Assembly: GCA_045534775.1 (NCBI GenBank)
Contig: JAZSKI010000049.1
Location: forward strand, 9,254 to 73,253
Source of the DNA: Clostridia bacterium
GTDB lineage: Bacteria; Bacillota; Clostridia; RUG12999
Length of the DNA stretch: 64,000 nt
Reading direction: 5' to 3'
Shown: positions 14,506-35,745 of the stretch, in pieces
Numbering within the stretch: position 1 is the stretch's first letter
Layout: every line of letters starts with the position of its first letter
The notes under the pieces: generated by a model
Databases searched by the model: none
What the model was told of the DNA's origin: nothing
What the model saw: only the letters and a program-made list of their open reading frames with translations
Made by a program: the position numbers and the translations under genes

Positions 14506-17382
14506 CTATTTTTTCAAAATAATTTTTACGGTTCCAGAGAGGAGGGCTAAAACCACCTTGTCATCTGCATTTATTTCCGAAATATCCGTCTTTTTCAGCC
14601 TGCCGTTTTCTATTTCATAAACCACCGCCGAGGTGGTTGAGAAGTTCCTTTCGCCACCGGTTGACTCCGCTATAATGCGACCGTCATATTTTTTCAGTAC
14701 CTTACCCAAAAATACTGCTGTTTCTCCGAAGAAGAAATCCGCCGTTACAGTACCCCATTCGCCCGTTACCCATTCATAGAAATCTGTAGTATCGGCTGAA
14801 TGTAAAAACCGCACTGCATTTATTTCTCCTTTTTCGTCCGTACCGTATTGCAGAATATCGCCGACCGCAAGTGGGGTCCCCCCATCGCCCGGGTGCAGGA
14901 TTTTGTTTTTACAGGAACCTATTGCCGTTATATCTTCAATATCCCTTGCGGAAATTTTAATATCCGTTCCATTACTGAAGGTAAGCATATAAACCTCGTT
15001 TCCCGTTTCATCGAGGGTCACTTCTATTTCCCGGATTATGACAATTTCATTATAATTGGTAATATTCAGCATCTGGCTGTCCTTTTCGTGGACTATGACC
15101 GCCTCAGGTACATATTGTTCGTCTGTGCCGTAGATTTCTATATTATATCTGTTTGTAGCTTTGAAAAAATCTTTTTTCCTTACAAAGTAGCCTTCCTCGT
15201 AGGTTTTATCTTCGGGAATTACTATAATCTTTGTTTCGTCCGACAGGAAATATCTTGCGGCAAAAAGACTGTTGTGATAGAGACTGATGCTCTTATAATC
15301 CGCATTTTCCACGCTGAGGCTGCTTATTTTTCCGTCTCTCGCCAGGCTGTATTTTACGGTTTTCCCTTCAGGCGGCAGGGCAACGCCCTGCTTTAAAGTA
15401 AATATTTCTATTTTACCGCCGCCCGTAAAGAGTTTTATTTCCATATCATCCGAAATATTACCCGAGCTTCCCGTTTTTATCACATAGCCATAGTTTTCAT
15501 AGGGCGAGCTTTTAATATCGGCATAGAGGATTTTCCCCTGTCTGTCAAAATAAAAATATCCCCATTCACCCACCTGCGGTTGCGGTGTGTTTCCGAAGGC
15601 GGCTGAAACCGCGTAGGGTTTCCCGTCAATAATTAACTCCCTTTCACTTAAAGAGTCTAAGGTCCCGATGACCGCTTCCGTTGAAATTATAATTTCTGTC
15701 GCCCTGCCGTTTATGCTTCTTGCAATTTGCAGTACCTCGTCGGCATTATAGCTCAAATCATCTGTTTTTTCGCCGTCACGGATTACGGTTACCTGCCTGC
15801 AATCGGGCAAATTAAGCATAAGCTTTCCGCTGAATCTGCCGTAAACTTCTTTTTCGAGGCTTCCTCCGCTTTGGGCAACTACCGCAGTATAGCTTTTGAT
15901 TTTAACCGTTTCTGCAGGTGAACCGATAATCTCAGCCTCCCCGTCAGCAGGGCAATAATCGGCTAAATTGCAATCCCCTGCCGAGGCTAAAAACTCGCCG
16001 TTATATATAATTCTGGTATTGGGTGTGATGCTGACCCTTACGCCGCCACCTGCGATTTCGCTGTTATTAAACTCTTCAATATCATCTGCCGAAATCACCT
16101 TTACATCCTCTGTTTTATCAGTAAAATGTATAACCTTCCCCTCGTCATCCGCATAAAGCTTCACCCTATGACCCAACAGCTTTTTAATTCCTTCATCCCC
16201 GCAGCTATAGGTTTCAAAACCCAGTCGAATCTGAGTTTTCCTCACCGAGCTGTCACCCGTCAGGGCGGTTGTGCCGTTATCCGTCAAGAGAGACGTTACC
16301 GTATTAATTTTATGATAATATTTAAGAGCATTTACAGTTTTATCGTATACGATATTCTCTCCGAAGGAGCTTTGCTCCATAACCCTCGTTTCAAAAGCGT
16401 TTGCTAGAAGATTTACCATATCTCCTCTCGTTATATCGCCGTCTTTGACATTTTTCCCCAGCTTCAGCTCCCCGGCAATGGACAAATATCCTACGGGATA
16501 GCCGCCCGTGGTCTCGGCATAGTTACCATAGCCCAGTGCCGTTACAAGTATTTTTACGGCTTCCTTATAGCTGACAATCCTGTCCGGATAGAAAAGCCCG
16601 TCTGACGCTCCGGTGACAAGTCCATTTTCCACCCCTGCGTTTACATAAGGCGTATACCACGCTTCCTTAGCCACATCCTCAAAATAGGTGTAGCCACCGC
16701 CGTTTTCCGCATTAATCAGCTTTGCAACCGCAGTAATGTAGCCGGCACGGGTAACAGTCTCTTCAGGTCTGTAGCTACCGTCATCATAGCCGTTTAAGAT
16801 ACCGAGACTGTTTAAAAGCTTTAAGCTATCCAGCATATTTTCATCTGTTACATCAGCAAATTTTTCACTACCGCCCTTTTCGCCTCTGATAAAGCGAATA
16901 GCAGGGTTCCAGGAGTTTCCGCCCAAATTCTGAAATTCTATTTTTATGAATTTATCTTCGGTGTTTTTTATTTTATAGTCTATTGTCAGCCATTTATTTT
17001 CTATCTTGGGATGGATTTTAATGGACGGTTTAATTTGTCTGAACTTCTCCCCGTCCTCCGACAAATAGAAATTAAAATGAGACATTCCGTCACCGTCCCA
17101 GAAATAGGTTGAAACGGTAAGGTCGCATTGAATCGGGATTTCATATACAAGCCACTGTGGTGAAAGCTCCGTTCGCTGAATAAAACTGAAATCATCGGTG
17201 AAGCTTACCTCCTCATCCGTATGAGGGGTTGCCGTAAGCTTTTCACTATGAAAAACCGCACCGTCAAGGCTTGCGCAATCCTCAAAAAAAGGCAACGATA
17301 CCTCTTCTGCCGATACAGCGATCGGCAGAAGAAGTACTGACAGAATTATTAAAATATGTTTTTTTATATTACACTTTAACAT
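14506..17382 (-). CDS. large secreted cell-surface protein with N-terminal SLH (S-layer homology) domains
   Basis: Signal peptide MLKCNIKKHILIILSVLLLPIAVSA. Several SLH repeats are present (FADV...LGIL.GY.DG.YRP...TRAE...). The start is placed at the second Met (17382), which has a GGAG RBS. The ORF track starts at 17397, which would overlap the ilvD relic. Confidence 0.75.
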   Translation of the reverse strand: MLKCNIKKHILIILSVLLLPIAVSAEEVSLPFFEDCASLDGAVFHSEKLTATPHTDEEVSFTDDFSFIQRTELSPQWLVYEIPIQCDLTVSTYFWDGDGMSHFNFYLSEDGEKFRQIKPSIKIHPKIENKWLTIDYKIKNTEDKFIKIEFQNLGGNSWNPAIRFIRGEKGGSEKFADVTDENMLDSLKLLNSLGILNGYDDGSYRPEETVTRAGYITAVAKLINAENGGGYTYFEDVAKEAWYTPYVNAGVENGLVTGASDGLFYPDRIVSYKEAVKILVTALGYGNYAETTGGYPVGYLSIAGELKLGKNVKDGDITRGDMVNLLANAFETRVMEQSSFGENIVYDKTVNALKYYHKINTVTSLLTDNGTTALTGDSSVRKTQIRLGFETYSCGDEGIKKLLGHRVKLYADDEGKVIHFTDKTEDVKVISADDIEEFNNSEIAGGGVRVSITPNTRIIYNGEFLASAGDCNLADYCPADGEAEIIGSPAETVKIKSYTAVVAQSGGSLEKEVYGRFSGKLMLNLPDCRQVTVIRDGEKTDDLSYNADEVLQIARSINGRATEIIISTEAVIGTLDSLSERELIIDGKPYAVSAAFGNTPQPQVGEWGYFYFDRQGKILYADIKSSPYENYGYVIKTGSSGNISDDMEIKLFTGGGKIEIFTLKQGVALPPEGKTVKYSLARDGKISSLSVENADYKSISLYHNSLFAARYFLSDETKIIVIPEDKTYEEGYFVRKKDFFKATNRYNIEIYGTDEQYVPEAVIVHEKDSQMLNITNYNEIVIIREIEVTLDETGNEVYMLTFSNGTDIKISARDIEDITAIGSCKNKILHPGDGGTPLAVGDILQYGTDEKGEINAVRFLHSADTTDFYEWVTGEWGTVTADFFFGETAVFLGKVLKKYDGRIIAESTGGERNFSTTSAVVYEIENGRLKKTDISEINADDKVVLALLSGTVKIILKK

Positions 17383-17835
17383 CAAGCACAGCTCCATTTA
17401 TAGCAGAAGATACAAGCATTGCATAGCGGCTGAGATACCCTTCTTTGATTTTCATTTCGGGACAGTTCCATTCTTTCATTCGACTTGCGGTTTCCTCGTA
17501 GCGAATTATCGCCACATCAGCTTTTTCGATTTTACCGTCCATAATAGCAGCTATTGCCTCGTCCTCGCTGCCAAAACCTTTGCCTCTTATTCGTGTACCG
17601 GCATTTCCTCAGCAACAGCGGCACGTTTTGCCACACAGCCGTCCTTTGCGGCACGGGGTATTTTATACGTACGGATATGCCCGGGGATAATCTCATTAAA
17701 GGTACTCGCAACACCTGTAACAGGTCTTTTTATCTGTTCGCCCGTATATCCCATAGCATTAAGAAGGCTACGGTGAGAAGCTTTTTTTAAGCCCGTACCT
17801 CTCTTAAAATCAAACCTTTCAAAAGTTATATAATT
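17369..17835 (-). pseudogene. ilvD: dihydroxy-acid dehydratase (ilvD) relic: N-terminal ~65 codons fused to two C-terminal pieces, no start codon, internal stop/frameshift
   Basis: Minus-strand translation gives ...LKKASHRSLLNAMGYTGEQIKRPVTGVASTFNEIIPGHIRT... (IlvD residues ~10-75), then a stop, then in another frame GKGFGSEDEAIAAIMDGKIEKADVAIIRYE|ETASRMKEWNCPEMKIKEGYLSRYAMLVSSAINGAVLDV (IlvD ~395-420 joined to ~515-558). About 1.2 kb of ilvD is missing. Confidence 0.6.
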
Positions 17836-17893
17836 AGTATATCATATAGAAATTATAATTGCAAGAGTTATTTTAACAAAACCCGCGGAATAG

Positions 17894-18205
17894 TTAATTT
17901 CTTTCGTTACACACCTCTATGTAGAAGCTCACCGGTCTGAATCCGTCATTACAGGAAATCATAGCCGATTTTTCATTTTTCATCCAACCGTCGTAGAAGT
18001 TACCGCCGCCGGTTGCCAGCTCTTTTACAAAATATTCCATACTCTCCCAGGCAGAATCGCACATATTTTCAGGCTTTTCGCCGCGGACGGACATAAACTC
18101 CATACCGAGCCGCATTTCGCAGGCATGCTCGATTGGATTTTCATATTTTTCTATCAAATCCTCATACCGCATCATTTTCATAACGGTAATTTTTACGTCC
18201 TTCAT
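17894..18205 (-). CDS. hypothetical protein (103 aa, 4 Cys), last gene of PAS-Sir2-rhodanese operon
   Basis: 4-nt ATGA overlap with the upstream rhodanese gene. No family recognised. Confidence 0.5.
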   Translation of the reverse strand: MKDVKITVMKMMRYEDLIEKYENPIEHACEMRLGMEFMSVRGEKPENMCDSAWESMEYFVKELATGGGNFYDGWMKNEKSAMISCNDGFRPVSFYIEVCNERN

Positions 18206-20496: not shown

Positions 20497-21239
20497 TTAA
20501 TTTTCAATCAAAAAGTCCGATTTTGCGGTTTGCCTGAATTTTATGGGCGATACGCCTTTTATTTTTTTGAAAATACGGCTGAAATAGGCAGCGGCAGAAT
20601 AACCCAGCATTTCCGAAATTTCTTCTATGCTGTAATCGGTGTTTGCCAGCAAATTTTCGGCTTTTTCTGTTTTTCTGAAATTTATATACTCACTGACTGT
20701 ACAGTGATAATAGCTGTGAAACAACCTGTACAGAGAGCTTTTTGAAATATATGTCGCTTGCGCAACCTTCGTTGCCGAAAGAGGTTTAAAAATATTTTCA
20801 TTTATATACATGGTTGCTTTTTCGATATTTTTATCCGACTTCGGTTTCATGATATTTTCAAGTAATATGTATTTTGCCAGCATAACGCCAACTGTGGTTA
20901 TACTTCGGATTTTCGCATCTTCAACCATCTCAAGGCTGTCATAGTATTCCTGTAGCTTCGGGTTTGTGCAAAAGCCTTTTCCAGTTTTTATCTGACCCAT
21001 AATAACATATCCTATAATTATGCCTTCATGGATGATTGGCACAGCAATGTCCGTAAGCCCTGCGTGGCAGATATGGCGTTCAGGCTTTTTGCTTTCCCCG
21101 CATCGCCGCAAAAGCTTTATATCAGAGCTACTGCAGGCACGCCTTCCCTCCGGCGTTTCCTGAATTTTTCTGCAATAGTCATTGGAAACGATGCTTTTTT
21201 TATATTTGAGTATATTAAATCATTATAATCAACTATCAT
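20497..21239 (-). CDS. AraC-family regulator with N-terminal PocR sensory domain; apparent -1 frameshift in a T7 run
   Basis: C-terminal AraC HTH. The PocR motifs DYCRKIQETPEGRRACSSSD and HICHAGL are present. The frame opens without an ATG. The true start MIVDYNDLIYSNIKK is at 21239 in another frame. The two frames join if the T7 run at 21195-21201 is T8. The gene lies 26 nt upstream of alkD. Confidence 0.6.
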
Positions 21240-21362: not shown

Positions 21363-22240
21363 TTGTTATGTTATACTTTAGGTAATACTGAAAAAAGATG
21401 TGTCTCTATGAATATATATAATGTAAATGAAACGTCATATCATACGGAAGATTATAAAATCAAAATCAACGGCATTGAGGTTACTCCCGATACGGCGAGG
21501 GTTTTTGCCGTTTTCTTCAACAGACGCCGGCCCGGTCATCAAAGACAAATTGAGCAGTCGGAGCTTGTAAATTTTGTTTCATTTTCCTGCTATGGTGAAG
21601 CTGTTATTGAAGTTACTCCTGCGGAAAACTTTGAAAGCTATGTTATAAGACCGAAATCTCTTGGTTTTAAGTCCCGCATTACCGAAAGCGGCAGTATTGA
21701 AATTATAATGACACGGCCTGCATATTTTACCGTTGAGCCTTTTGGAAGAAGAAATGCACTTCACGTATTTGCCGACCCCGAAAAAGCTTACGAAAAGGAT
21801 GAAAATACTATTAATTTCGGCAAAGGCGTTCATGATAAATATGGATTGCGCCGATGTCCATGATATAACCTATGAAAATATCAACGTGGAATTTGATGAG
21901 CTAATTCCTCAGCCTGTGCTTTAGCAGACCGATAGTGAGGTTTATAAAAACCCCAATCCTGACTATGCTCCTCCCCTTATTCCTTCGGAGGTTGTTTTCC
22001 ATTACGAATATTCGGCAGGCGGCAAAAGACGCGGCAAAAACAGAAGGCTTAAGCTTAAAAACATTCATCTTTTCGGCAGACAAAAGCCTATTATTCATTT
22101 TGAAGGCTACGACCATGAACACGGCTGTGATGATATTACTGTTTCAGGGTTGTTCCGGAATGAGAAAAAAATAACCGATTTAAACGAAACCGAAATGACC
22201 GCAAACGAATTTTGCAGAAATATTACGTTAAAATAACGTT
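21363..22240 (+). pseudogene. degraded glycoside-hydrolase-like gene (possibly right-handed beta-helix / GH28-like), pieces in three frames
   Basis: Recognisable fragments are NIYNVNETSYHTEDYKIKINGIEVTPDTARV..., then DCADVHDITYENINVEFDE in a second frame, then IHLFGRQKPIIHFEGYDHEHGCDDITVSGLFRNEK in a third frame. The total is far shorter than any intact family member. The family assignment is tentative. Confidence 0.35.
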
Positions 22241-22287: not shown

Positions 22288-24187
22288 ATGAAAGAAATTA
22301 TTGTTCCGGTTGTATATAACACCGTCGACCGTTGCGGACGCAAGGAAATTACAGACGCTCTTAAGCAAGCGAATGTGTCCCGCGTTTTTATAGGGTTTGG
22401 TCAGTATTTTTACGATGAAAAAACGTCTGGAATCCTTTAAAATCCTTAAAGAAAGTATTGATTATTTTAAAAACCAAGGCTTTAAGGTCGGTGTGTGGCA
22501 TTGGTCCTTCTGGATAAAGGATTTTAGCCCTTTTACCATGATAACAGGTGCAGACGGCAAGGTATCCTCCGGCTTTACCTGTCCCTTTGATAATGATTTT
22601 ATAAAATTTGCCGGTGATTTTACTAAAGAGTTAGCCCATTTAGGTATTGACTCAATTCTCCTTGACGATGACTACCGTTTCGGTCATTTAGATGTTGCAA
22701 ACGGCTGTATGTGTGACAAGCATCTGACAAAAATCAGAGAAATTTCAGGTGAAGAAATAAGCCGTGAGGAGCTTAGTAAAAAAATTCTTGTAGGCGGTAA
22801 AAACAAGTGCCGCAGTGCATAGATGCAGGCAAACGACGAATCTTTGATTTCCTTCGCCAAGGAGCTGCGTAAAGCCTTAGATACAGTTGACAGCAGTATC
22901 AGAATGGGATATTGCAGTTGTATGACGAATTGGGATAACGATGGTACTGATCCTGTTTCCATTGCCAAAGCTCTTGCCGGCGATACAATCCCGTTTTTAA
23001 GACTTATCGGTGCTCCCTATTGGCATTATGACAGACTGTTCGATCAGGATTTGCAAGGTGTTATAGAGGTTGAACGATTAAAGCTGACCTGGGCAGGAAA
23101 TCAAGGTGTTGAAATAACCTGCGAGGGTGATGCTTATCCCCATATCAGCCATTATTGCAAGGTCAGCCATATGGAAGTCTTCCACACAGCAATGCTTGCA
23201 GACGGCAGAGCTGATGGTTATATAAAATATATGATAACCTATAACACCTCCCACAAAAGATATAATGAGAAAATAGCTTCTCATATCAGGAATATGCCTT
23301 TATATAAGGATGTTTCGAGAATTTTCGACAATAAGACTGCCGTAGGAGTACGGATTTTTGAGTTCCAGCACAAGCTTGAGAATATGGACTTGCCTGAGGA
23401 ATATTGCGGAAATGAAAAAATTGCTCATCTCGTATTCTCACAGGGAGCAAAAGCAATGGCGGCTCTCAGTATTCCTACAACCTATGATGAAACTGAATGT
23501 CCCGGTGTTATTTTTGGTGAAAATGCAAAATATGTAACAGAGGAAAATCTTAAATACGGTGCGATTTTAGACCTTGATGCCGCCAAAATTCTTGAAAAGC
23601 GCGGTATAGATACAGAGCTTGCAAAAATTGGAGAAAGCCTTAACGCCAACGGCGGCGGTGTCGATTCTGCAGAGGAATATTATGTGACTGAAGACGACTA
23701 TGCAAAGTGTTTCGGACGGTTTGATGCCTTTGCTACTGAGCTGAAGGAAGGGGCAACAGTAGAAAGCTATTATGTCATAGATGAGAAAAAGCTCCCTAAC
23801 GTATATACCTATGAAAACAAAGATGGACTGCGTTTTCTTGTGATAGCCGTTAAAATGTTTTCTTCCGATGACAGAGTATTCAAACATATTTTAAGACAGC
23901 TGCAATTTATCCGCTATATTGAGTGTATAAGCAGAAAGCCGTTGCCTGCTGTGTGCAGTGAGCATCCCGAGCTTTATATGATGGTGAAGCGAAATGGAAA
24001 AGAACCCGCAGTGGAGTTATGGAATTTGTCCGATGACGGTATTGAAAGCCCCATCATCATGGATAAAAATATAGAAAATGCAGAATTTATAAATTGCGCC
24101 GGTAGCTTCAAAGAAAATATCGTAAATATTTCTCCCTTGCAGCCGCACAGCTTTGCATTTTTTAATATTACGGAGGAATTAGTGTGA
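22288..24187 (+). pseudogene. hydrolase-like (TIM-barrel-like) gene interrupted by a homopolymer frameshift and an in-frame TAG
   Basis: ATG 22288 (RBS TAGGAGGT) opens a 50-codon frame ending at TAA 22438. A TTG at 22397 opens an overlapping frame that continues the protein if the A6 run at 22418-22423 is A5. That frame ends at TAG 22820-22822, immediately followed by in-frame ATG 22823 and a 454-aa ORF. Confidence 0.5.
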
Positions 24188-32493: not shown

Positions 32494-32602
32494 ATTTGTA
32501 TATTTACCTGAAATTATACATAATAAAACCCGCAATGCCGTAAAATGAGTTCACCAAAACCTGCCTCAGCAGGTGGGTATTTCCTGATTGCTTTATAAGT
32601 CC

Positions 32603-32632
32603 CCTGGCGTATCCGAAGATACGGGGGCATTT
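32603..32632 (-). other. stable stem-loop with UUCG tetraloop (minus-strand RNA) within a structured intergenic region
   Basis: Minus strand reads gCCCCCGUAUC-UUCG-GAUACGccaGGGG. A further hairpin CCUGC-ugag-GCAGG flanks it. Confidence 0.3.
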
Positions 32633-32782
32633 ACGCCACATTCAGAGAGCCAATTCCCTTATAAAAAATGTTGGTTTAGGTAATACTGTATTCACGAACA
32701 TTGCAGGCAATTTAAACTGCTCTATCAATACTTATTGTATCATATTCCGAAGAAAATATCAATAGTTTCGCAATAAAAATTT

Positions 32783-33534: not shown

Positions 33535-35745
33535 TTATTGTTCAATGATATTTATGGCTATTTCAGCAGATTTTTCGGATTTCTGTTTAAACTTTTCTGC
33601 CGATGCTTTAAGCTCTTCCCGGATAGTATCTCCGTTTTCAAAGGCTTTATCAATCATCATCTTATAATCTCCGCCCGTCATAGCGCGAGGGTCGAGAAAA
33701 TACGGTTGATTAATATATTTCAGGAAATTACTTACCTTCGGATCGTATGCAATTCCCACAGGCGGTACTCCGTAAAGAGTGGCGTAAATCAGCATATGCA
33801 ATCTTACAGATACTACCATACTGCTTTTTGCTACTATTCCGAGAGTTTCGGGGATACCGACTCTCCTGCTTATAAAGATGCCTTTGTTTTTCATTTTAGC
33901 TACAATGCTTCTGCTTATTGACGCATCATAAGGATATTGCATAGGTATAAATACGGGTCTGAGCTTGTAGTTGTCGTAAATGTAGTCCGCCATTTCTGCA
34001 CATCTCGTATCAAAATCCTCGGGACATTTATCCCATTTGCGAACAGATATGCAGACGAATTTTTCTTCCTCGCCCAAGCCGTATTGTGCGAGTAGCTTTC
34101 CCGCGTTTTCGGTATTATCCTCACTTATGCTGAAAACAGGGTCTGCCGTCACCTCGCAGGTCGGCGTTCTGACTCCTAAGGCTCTTAACTCCTCTAAGGA
34201 GTCGTCATCACGCAAAGTTATATAATCCACCCGATTAATAACTCTTTTAACTCTTCTGCGATTTAACTTTTTGTTTATGGGCCCGATACCGTTAGCATAG
34301 AGCACAACCTTGCAACCGTATTTTTTAGCTTTTGCTGTTATAAAGAGATAATATAAAAGAGATTTTGTGCTTGTTACGTCCTGAATCAGGCTTCCGCCGC
34401 CCAGGATAAACAGTTTGGAATTTTTTATCTCTTTAAATACCTTTATAATATCGTATCTGTGTGTGGCACGAACGCCGTACATCTCCGAGGTTTCCTTGGG
34501 GTTGAAGGACATCACATTTATTGAAATATCCTTTTTCAGTTTGCGGAGTGAATGAACTATCGCATATAAAAGGGCATCGTCGCCGCTGTTTTTATATCCG
34601 TAATATCCCAGAACGGTAACGTCGTTTTTACCGTTTCGGGTGCCGCGGCGATACAGCTCTAAATTATCTTCTGTCATTCTTTCCAGCGAATAGTGACACA
34701 TTACTATGTTTCTGTTGTATCTGCCCATTTCATAGAGCAGGCTGTCATCCGATTCAAGGATAGTTATCAAATCATTTTTGAGTATTTCGCTGTCAACAGG
34801 CAGACAGCCGCGGCAGGTGAAATTATTATTCCTTGCCACGTCAACATTCTCGCGCGTTAATATGCCGATATAGCCTTCAACTCCCGCCACTATTACAGGC
34901 TTTGCCATAGACATAGATTCAAGGATTGCACGGGCTACACCTACGCAAACGGCAGCAGAAGATAAGAGGCGGTTTACATCTATCCTCGCTCCCGTCATAA
35001 CGACGGCACGTCTGCCGAGATTTTTGTTAATCTGCGTTGCTCTTGCTTTTAAGGTTTTGGCAATGTTTCCTTCGCCTATTATCATCAGTTCAATATCGGG
35101 GATTTTCATTGCTATATCCTCAAAAACATCTAACAGCTTTATAAGCGGGAGGCACACATCATCGTTGAGTCTGCTCATATAGACTATTCTTTTTGCACCG
35201 GGTTGAAGCCCGAATTCTTCACAGATGTCATCATATCTGTTGTCGGGAGAAAATTTTTCCACATCCACGCCGTTAGTGCTGACTATAATATTTTCAGGGC
35301 TGACCTTATAGTTTTTCATCAGATATTTTTTTATATCCTCGCTGACAGCAAGACTGTAATCTCCCCAATTTGTCAGAAATTTCAAGCCCTTTGCCGTGAC
35401 GTATGTTCCGTGGGTTGAGGTCACGAAATTAAATTTAACGGTTTTCCTGATAAGCCCGCATATAAATCCCGGGATGCGGGCATGGGCGTGAACTATATCG
35501 GGTTTTTCTGTTTTTATTATCTCTTTAAGGATACCGTAAGCCTTTGCCATACATCTCAGGTCGCGCTTGCTTAAGGGAGCTTTATAGTGCTTTATACCGC
35601 ATTTTTCTACCTCAGGCAGATATGCTCCCCCATCGGATACCATAATTATATCGTGACCCTTTCGTTTAAGCTGTTTCGACAGCTCTACCACGTGGGTTTC
35701 GGCTCCTCCGATATCAAGTCCCATAAGTGTCATCAGTATTTTCAT
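33535..35745 (-). CDS. fusion protein: N-terminal GT4/GT-B glycosyltransferase + C-terminal polysaccharide pyruvyl transferase (CsaB-like)
   Basis: N-terminal MKILMTLMGLDIGGAETHVVELSKQL (GT4). The C-terminal half carries GYYGYKNSGDDALLYAIVHSL..., the PS_pyruv_trans/CsaB signature. Confidence 0.75.
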   Translation of the reverse strand: MKILMTLMGLDIGGAETHVVELSKQLKRKGHDIIMVSDGGAYLPEVEKCGIKHYKAPLSKRDLRCMAKAYGILKEIIKTEKPDIVHAHARIPGFICGLIRKTVKFNFVTSTHGTYVTAKGLKFLTNWGDYSLAVSEDIKKYLMKNYKVSPENIIVSTNGVDVEKFSPDNRYDDICEEFGLQPGAKRIVYMSRLNDDVCLPLIKLLDVFEDIAMKIPDIELMIIGEGNIAKTLKARATQINKNLGRRAVVMTGARIDVNRLLSSAAVCVGVARAILESMSMAKPVIVAGVEGYIGILTRENVDVARNNNFTCRGCLPVDSEILKNDLITILESDDSLLYEMGRYNRNIVMCHYSLERMTEDNLELYRRGTRNGKNDVTVLGYYGYKNSGDDALLYAIVHSLRKLKKDISINVMSFNPKETSEMYGVRATHRYDIIKVFKEIKNSKLFILGGGSLIQDVTSTKSLLYYLFITAKAKKYGCKVVLYANGIGPINKKLNRRRVKRVINRVDYITLRDDDSLEELRALGVRTPTCEVTADPVFSISEDNTENAGKLLAQYGLGEEEKFVCISVRKWDKCPEDFDTRCAEMADYIYDNYKLRPVFIPMQYPYDASISRSIVAKMKNKGIFISRRVGIPETLGIVAKSSMVVSVRLHMLIYATLYGVPPVGIAYDPKVSNFLKYINQPYFLDPRAMTGGDYKMMIDKAFENGDTIREELKASAEKFKQKSEKSAEIAINIIEQ

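Follow-up and report, generated by a model that had tools for sequence, protein, structure and literature searches.

Features of the locus

We analyzed a 64,000-nucleotide (nt) stretch of contig JAZSKI010000049.1 from an uncultured Clostridia bacterium (assembly GCA_045534775.1, positions 9,254 to 73,253), hereafter called the window, to which all coordinates refer. On the minus strand of the window, a gene for a surface protein with SLH domains is preceded by 437 nt (17805-17369) that represent a decayed copy of ilvD, the gene for dihydroxy-acid dehydratase. The 3′ end of this dead gene now supplies the ribosome-binding site, the start codon and the first five codons of the SLH gene. Intact references were taken from the two closest genomes, GCA_054297345.1 (L083) and GCA_054285765.1 (L084), which were reached through a search with the SLH protein. 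The relevant features are as follows.

17836-17864, minus strand: predicted former ilvD promoter, with a -35 element TTGCAA (17864-17859), a 17-nt spacer, a TG dinucleotide (17844-17843) and a -10 element TATACT (17841-17836), from a consensus scan and alignment
17815-17820, minus strand: remnant of the ilvD Shine-Dalgarno (SD) sequence, GAAAGG; L083/L084 have AGAAAGG/AGAGAGG at the aligned position, 9-10 nt ahead of the ilvD ATG
17803-17805, minus strand: former ilvD start codon, ATG in L083 and L084 and AAG in the window (DNA alignment)
17638-17802, minus strand: segment 1, ilvD codons 2-60 without codons 4-7; 73% identical by tblastn to L083 residues 9-60 (E = 2.7e-24)
17500-17637, minus strand: segment 2, codons 385-430; 84% identical by tblastn to L083 residues 381-405 across a stop codon, then matching residues 404-432 in frame -1
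17369-17499, minus strand: segment 3, codons 514-555 and the stop codon TAA (17371-17369); 76% identical by tblastn to L083 residues 514-555 (E = 2e-19)
17392-17395, minus strand: new SD sequence of the SLH gene, GGAG, inside the former ilvD codons Asn-Gly-Ala; GGA in the window, GGT in both relatives
17380-17382, minus strand: new start codon of the SLH gene, ATG, spanning the former ilvD codons Asp-Val; GAT GTT in the window, GAT ATT (no ATG) in the relatives
17365-17367, minus strand: former start codon of the SLH gene, ATG changed to ATA, from alignment with orthologues; the window reads TAA-T-ATA AAA AAA
14506-17382, minus strand: SLH-domain surface protein gene, 958 amino acids (aa); Pfam SLH E = 2.7e-17; orthologues 52-56% identical

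Identity of the ilvD remnant

Translation of the minus strand of 17300-17900 gave two open stretches in different frames, the first ending in FDFKRGTGLKKASHRSLLNAMGYTGEQIKRPVTGVASTFNEIIPGHIRTYKIPRAAKDGCVAKRAAVAEEMPVHE followed by a stop codon and the second, in the other frame, reading GNAGTRIRGKGFGSEDEAIAAIMDGKIEKADVAIIRYEETASRMKEWNCPEMKIKEGYLSRYAMLVSSAINGAVLDVKV up to its stop codon. The joined two-frame translation matched NCBIfam families NF002068 (E = 6.6e-26, 91 bits) and TIGR00110 (E = 7e-25, 88 bits), each in three stretches and with scores far under the curated cut-offs for full-length members (644 and 618, respectively). Three stretches of the translation also matched the IlvD chains 6nte and 6ovt in the PDB. 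When 14 intact IlvD proteins were used as tblastn queries, three collinear pieces were placed on the remnant, and the pieces were 73-84% identical per segment to the intact proteins of L083 and L084 (best E = 2.7e-24). Single fragments gave sub-threshold matches in Pfam. A word-indexed protein search with the remnant returned one partial IlvD only, and a scan of GTDB genomes yielded, among the matches listed, only distant IlvD proteins that were 49-62% identical over the N-terminal piece. The similarity to IlvD is real, specific and far beyond chance. A tblastn search with a partial IlvD query found no other ilvD-like sequence in the window.

A first-pass annotation of this DNA had described 17369-17835 as a heavily deleted ilvD relic lying in two frames without a start codon, and had proposed a tblastn comparison of IlvD with the window as a check. 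Both the description and the comparison hold up, and the intact ilvD genes at the same place in L083 and L084 lend them further support. The residue assignments required correction. Where the annotation recognized residues ~10-75, ~395-420 and ~515-558, the alignment shows codons 1-60 (minus codons 4-7), 385-430 and 514-555 of the 555 in the intact gene, leaving ~145 codons. In particular, the stretch AKDGCVAKRAAVAEEMPVHE, which had been read as residues ~60-75, corresponds to residues 381-400 and was placed by tblastn on residues 381-405 of L083 with 84% identity.

The pieces that remain are thus the N-terminus, a stretch from the middle of the C-terminal domain and the C-terminus of the IlvD/Edd family (Pfam PF00920 and PF24877; TIGR00110/NF002068). 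Unlike members of that family, the remnant has no start codon, carries a nonsense codon and a frameshift, and lacks codons 61-384 and 431-513. It is a derivative of the family and not a member that is able to function.

Genomic context in relatives

L083 and L084 each contain an intact 555-codon ilvD gene followed, after 11-12 nt, by an orthologue of the SLH gene. The encoded SLH proteins are 56% and 54% identical to that of the window, respectively, and a further orthologue is 52% identical. The ABC-transporter gene on the 3′ side of the SLH gene is common to the window and L083. On the 5′ side of the predicted ilvD promoter the neighbors differ, with TIGR04076, rhodanese and Sir2 genes in the window, an ECF transporter in L083 and tRNA genes in L084. 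SLH orthologues in three other genomes, L085-L087 (36-52% identical), are preceded by genes other than ilvD; therefore, the ilvD-SLH pair is specific to a small clade. This synteny is decisive in identifying the remnant as the decayed orthologue in its original place.

In every genome of L083-L087, the SLH orthologue lies 11-23 nt behind the preceding gene, which is ilvD, trmK or a 371-aa gene located downstream of an MBOAT/DHHW cluster. The latter gene is at best PMT_2-like, in L087. The consistently close position of the SLH orthologue behind another gene suggests that it habitually depends on the promoter of its upstream neighbor.

JGI metagenomes were scanned twice, first with the SLH protein as query and then with four aligned orthologues. 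Neither scan turned up a relative, and therefore neither an independent assembly confirming the junctions nor an intermediate stage of decay was obtained.

Lesions in ilvD

Individual lesions were read from the DNA alignment with the ilvD genes of L083 and L084 and from a table of its gaps. The remnant retains 437 of 1,668 nt, such that 1,231 nt (74%) have been lost. The first-pass estimate had been more than 1.1 kb, removed by at least two separate deletions; we counted four deletions within ilvD (12, 972, 246 and 1 nt) and one of 10 nt in the spacer between ilvD and the SLH gene. The 12-nt deletion follows 17797, removed codons 4-7 and is bounded by two AAAAAG runs. In the case of the 972-nt deletion (codons 61-384), both end-points in L083 read GCAAAGGACGG (Ala-Lys-Asp-Gly), an 11-nt direct repeat, and one copy is kept in the window at the end of segment 1 (17649-17639), which marks the junction. 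The 246-nt deletion (codons 431-513) joined segments 2 and 3 and has ATGAAG microrepeats at its ends. Overall, the end-points of the three larger ilvD deletions and of the spacer deletion carry direct repeats of 4-11 nt in the intact orthologues, and the three larger ilvD deletions are all multiples of three and hence in frame.

Besides the loss of the start codon, segment 2 contains an in-frame TAA (17589-17587) and, 13 nt farther downstream, the 1-nt deletion, which follows 17574. This single-nucleotide lesion is responsible for the change of frame in the remnant, and it is separate from the deletion joints. The GVCDG, PNCDK, CPGCGSC and DGRFSG motifs of the L083 protein all lie in deleted parts; in this family, they are known to provide the cysteines that ligate the Fe-S cluster, the residues that bind Mg and the catalytic serine. 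As the Fe-S ligand, metal-site and catalytic regions are all missing, no dehydratase can be made. With multiple independent disabling lesions, this copy of ilvD is dead.

Deletions between short direct repeats have been classically described for lacI, and the repeat-flanked deletions observed here are a signature of slipped-strand or illegitimate recombination. The in-frame length of the larger deletions may have a simple reason, namely that the repeats are peptide motifs in phase with the codons.

Replacement of the SLH initiation site

The ratio of nonsynonymous to synonymous substitutions (dN/dS) in the SLH gene was ~0.13, the same as between its orthologues, indicating purifying selection. 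The gene is therefore live, must be expressed and needs a start. All five orthologues begin with ATG AAA AA(A/G/-) behind a GGAG-type SD sequence. At the corresponding position of the window the start codon has become ATA (17367-17365), and the 10-nt spacer deletion immediately upstream removed the ancestral GGAG. The gene now has a different GGAG, situated 9 nt before the ATG at 17382, which is itself 15 nt upstream of the old start. Both the new SD sequence and the new ATG are one base away from the ilvD codons found at these positions in both relatives.

The remnant overlaps the SLH start, as had been noted previously; its stop codon (17371-17369) lies downstream of both candidate starts, 17397 and 17382. 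The first-pass annotation had taken this overlap as an argument for the second Met (17382). That choice of start codon stands, and it is the overlap argument that does not carry it. The support comes instead from the GGAG 9 nt upstream, from an NCBI protein (P0002) and from the alignment of orthologues. No purine-rich SD sequence precedes the ATG at 17397. P0002, encoded on a contig of 99 kb, is 100% identical to the SLH product and 958 aa in length; thus, the NCBI model starts at 17382. The N-termini of the orthologues (MKK...) align from residue 6 of the protein started at 17382, indicating that the product gained a five-residue N-terminal extension, MLKCN, in front of its normal signal peptide. 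The codons for these five residues derive from ilvD, in a frame other than that of the former gene.

Turnover of start codons, in which an initiation region is replaced by upstream sequence, is a general phenomenon. The SLH gene conforms to it in that its ancestral ATG and SD sequence are gone and their role has passed to an in-frame ATG farther upstream, which has an SD sequence of its own. It differs in that the new signals come from within the coding region of a dead neighboring gene, in another frame.

The signal-peptide codons of the SLH gene (LLLPI..SAEE) also contain a perfect or near-perfect hairpin of 17-20 bp (17298-17337, minus strand; about -31 to -35 kcal/mol). A run of seven T residues follows ~8 nt later, and a scan flagged the site as terminator-like. 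It is conserved at 6030-6071 in L083 and at about 6030-6072 in L084, and at least one base pair has changed in a compensatory manner (C-G versus T-A); the hairpin is weaker in L085 and absent in L086 and L087. Possible roles of this structure are those of an attenuator, an operator or an element that affects mRNA stability.

The predicted ilvD promoter

Upstream of the remnant, the sequence TTGCAA-17-TGnTATACT aligns with TTGCAT/TTGAAA-17-TGnTATACT on the 5′ side of the intact ilvD genes in L083/L084, and the consensus scan also picked the L084 copy. Despite their different upstream neighbors, all three genomes have kept the hexamers at a spacing of 17 nt together with the TG dinucleotide. Conservation with the relatives starts a few nucleotides 5′ of the -35 element, and everything farther upstream differs. 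These matches point to a promoter at 17836-17864 that probably served ilvD. The ilvD SD remnant (17820-17815) now has no start codon behind it. The consensus scan of the minus strand found no other sigma-70-like or terminator-like site between 17835 and 17383.

We also considered an internal promoter in the 3′ end of ilvD that might feed the SLH gene. The sole decent candidate, at 5786-5813 of L084, is deleted from the window and absent in L083, and this possibility was rejected.

A search of the whole window at the Rfam gathering threshold placed no T-box, riboswitch or leader within or close to the remnant. Lowering the threshold to E ≤ 1 for 17200-18000 gave no match on the relevant strand and a single weak match on the opposite strand (E = 0.59). 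In addition, no CodY box (AATTTTCWGAAAATT, allowing up to 3 mismatches) was found near the promoter.

Constraint on the remnant and its age

Constraint was estimated from the 140 codons of the remnant that could be aligned with L083 and L084. The dN/dS of the remnant was 0.12-0.14 against either relative, compared with 0.07 for the same codons between the two intact genes and 0.05 for their full length. Moreover, 5 of the 43 residues that are invariant in 14 intact IlvD proteins have been replaced (P14S, L50T, V387A, G424A and V428I), whereas the intact sequences mostly have 0-2 such replacements, with one outlier at 5. A dN/dS about twice the intact level suggests that the remnant has been under relaxed constraint; given the small sample and the saturation of dS, this result is supportive rather than decisive. 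A rough partition of the substitutions gave ~0.09 neutral substitutions per site since ilvD was inactivated. As dS is saturated, this figure is only indicative of an age that would be long enough for many lesions and yet not ancient.

Model for decay and takeover

The explanation that we favor, with a probability of roughly 0.85, is that the 437 nt are the remnant of an ilvD pseudogene that decayed in situ and now forms the leader and initiation region of the SLH gene. According to this model, the ancestor would have had a stand-alone ilvD gene with its own extended -10 promoter and the SLH gene 11-12 nt behind it. Since such a spacer has no room for a separate SLH promoter, the two genes would almost certainly have been co-transcribed. 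Once ilvD became dispensable, it lost its start codon, acquired the nonsense codon and the frameshift, and shrank by the four deletions. The 10-nt deletion and the ATG-to-ATA change destroyed the SLH initiation site, and the GGAG and ATG at 17382 in the ilvD 3′ end replaced it. Transcription of the SLH gene would still begin at the ilvD promoter and pass through ~450 nt of untranslated remnant. A requirement of the SLH gene for the promoter at one end and the initiation region at the other would explain why both ends of ilvD have persisted.

Several points weigh against this model. Use of the promoter and the position of the mRNA 5′ end are predicted from consensus matches. At ~0.09 neutral substitutions per site, itself a rough value, intact hexamers are no proof of selection on their own. 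Read-through from the TIGR04076/rhodanese/Sir2 genes is possible, as no terminator was predicted after 17894. The direction of the GGT-to-GGA and ATT-to-GTT changes was deduced from L083 and L084, and the window is more distant from these two than they are from one another. Finally, the sequence comes from one assembly of an uncultured genome.

A stronger version of the model, in which selection has kept the remnant with its promoter, body and last codons co-opted as the promoter, long leader and initiation region of the SLH gene, is tentative, and we place it somewhat short of even odds. As the larger deletions are in frame, the shortened open reading frame (ORF) could have been translated for some time, thereby preserving coupling to the SLH gene or avoiding polarity on it. 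Under this extension, loss of the ilvD start codon would have followed the origin of the new SLH start.

The alternative that survives best, although we regard it as unlikely, is that the remnant is simply neutral DNA that has not yet been deleted, with the SLH gene transcribed by read-through from the upstream operon or from an unrecognized promoter and with the survival of the ilvD promoter being coincidental. The new SD sequence and ATG inside the remnant hold equally under this explanation. No terminator-like site separates the TIGR04076 stop codon (17894) from the remnant, a 14-nt promoter core could survive by chance over so small a neutral age, and segments 1 and 2 (~300 nt) have no obvious role. 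However, the predicted promoter is the only sigma-70-like site 5′ of the SLH gene on its strand in the remnant region, the 11-12 nt spacer in the relatives leaves the SLH gene no room for a promoter of its own, and conservation with the relatives begins just upstream of the -35 element and not farther.

It is far less probable that the remnant functions in its own right, by encoding a small IlvD-derived protein or as a structured regulatory RNA. Two ATG-initiated ORFs of 55 aa (17754-17587) and 57 aa (17542-17369) are present, and the stop codon of the latter lies 11 nt past the SLH start, which would in principle allow translational coupling. However, neither ATG is preceded by an SD sequence at a usable distance, the fragments contain no catalytic or cluster-binding residue and have replaced residues that are invariant in intact IlvD proteins, and the Rfam and CodY-box searches described above give a regulatory RNA no support.

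Least credible of all is an artefact of assembly or binning, in which the deletions would be mis-joins or collapsed reads and the real organism would carry an intact ilvD gene: the reliance on a single assembly, the failure to find a second one of the same species and the presence of other fragmented ORFs nearby (one of them at an A-run) speak for it, but the flanking genes are collinear with L083, amino-acid replacements in the remnant are also elevated, errors of assembly create neither point changes nor a working substitute for a lost start site, and the nine independent differences (loss of the ilvD start, the nonsense codon, the 1-nt deletion, four repeat-flanked deletions of which three are in ilvD and one in the spacer, loss of the SLH SD sequence and ATG, and gain of new ones) are of such different kinds, and include a compensating new start, that this explanation is very unlikely.

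Relation to pseudogene erosion and physiological meaning

Bacterial pseudogenes are known to erode through a deletional bias (Kuo & Ochman 2009, PMC2817411; Kuo & Ochman 2010, PMC2916853; Danneels et al. 2018, PMC6054270). The favored model fits this process in that a dead ilvD gene shrank by several repeat-flanked deletions and collected substitutions under what appears to be relaxed constraint. In contrast to most pseudogenes, which are purged quickly and entirely, both ends of ilvD persist, and they coincide with signals of the downstream gene. The remnant is a new instance of known processes; it represents no new kind of element and does not overturn current understanding. What it adds to a textbook pseudogene is that the remnant was taken over as the initiation region of the next gene and probably also as its leader and promoter. 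The locus provides a fully reconstructible example of repeat-mediated erosion, of the constraint that an operon partner places on such losses, and of a start site assembled from pseudogene sequence. For annotation, the 437 nt should be recorded as an ilvD pseudogene remnant instead of intergenic DNA or small ORFs, with the SLH start at 17382.

At least one gene copy for an enzyme required in the synthesis of valine, leucine and isoleucine (and of pantothenate), namely the one described here, has been lost from the organism. The first-pass annotation had pointed to either a second intact ilvD gene elsewhere or auxotrophy, which is a fair inference. Beyond the remnant, we found no ilv or leu genes in the 64-kb window. 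If the genome has no second copy of ilvD, the loss points to dependence on external branched-chain amino acids. The window is ordinary chromosomal DNA and includes housekeeping genes (IleRS, MutS/MutL, MiaA/MiaB, FtsK, FolD, QueA and Rnf). The closest matches to its fructose-1,6-bisphosphatase were only 65% identical, those with names being from 'Clostridia bacterium' and from Ruminococcaceae/Oscillospiraceae MAGs.

Other features of the window

On the plus strand, two more loci appear disrupted. At 21409-22236 a gene is seemingly in three pieces, with an N-terminal part that keeps one frame up to about 21835, a frameshift near 21835-21850, an in-frame TAG at 21922-21924 and then 100 further codons; it is possibly a decaying gene or the product of an assembly indel. 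At 22288-24187 an ORF beginning at 22288 shifts frame at a run of six A residues (22418-22423) and reaches a TAG (22820-22822), which is followed immediately and in the same frame by the ATG of a 454-aa ORF. This arrangement is either a disrupted gene of ~630 codons or a set of adjacent genes. The fragmented ORFs at 21.4-24.2 kb had no match in Pfam, NCBIfam or the PDB. Recoding of TAG as an explanation of the in-frame TAG codons was ruled out, as TAG ends 7 of 48 ordinary ORFs.

Adjoining these two loci on the minus strand (20497-21111) is a gene for an AraC-type regulator with a TTG start, whose PocR sensory domain matches the profile only from position 68 of 162 and which looks N-terminally truncated. 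Together with the two fragmented genes, the regulator may belong to a decaying sugar-utilization cluster. The disrupted ORFs fit either ongoing gene loss from this genome or some indel errors in its assembly.

A match to 6S RNA (RF00013; 94.5 bits) lies at 32523-32712 on the minus strand, and this is the sole Rfam family that reached its gathering score in the window. Nearby, also on the minus strand (33535-35745), a family-4/1 glycosyltransferase is fused to a CsaB-like polysaccharide pyruvyl transferase domain. SLH domains are usually anchored to pyruvylated cell-wall polymers, and the fusion protein may thus serve as a partner in anchoring the SLH protein encoded at 14506-17382.

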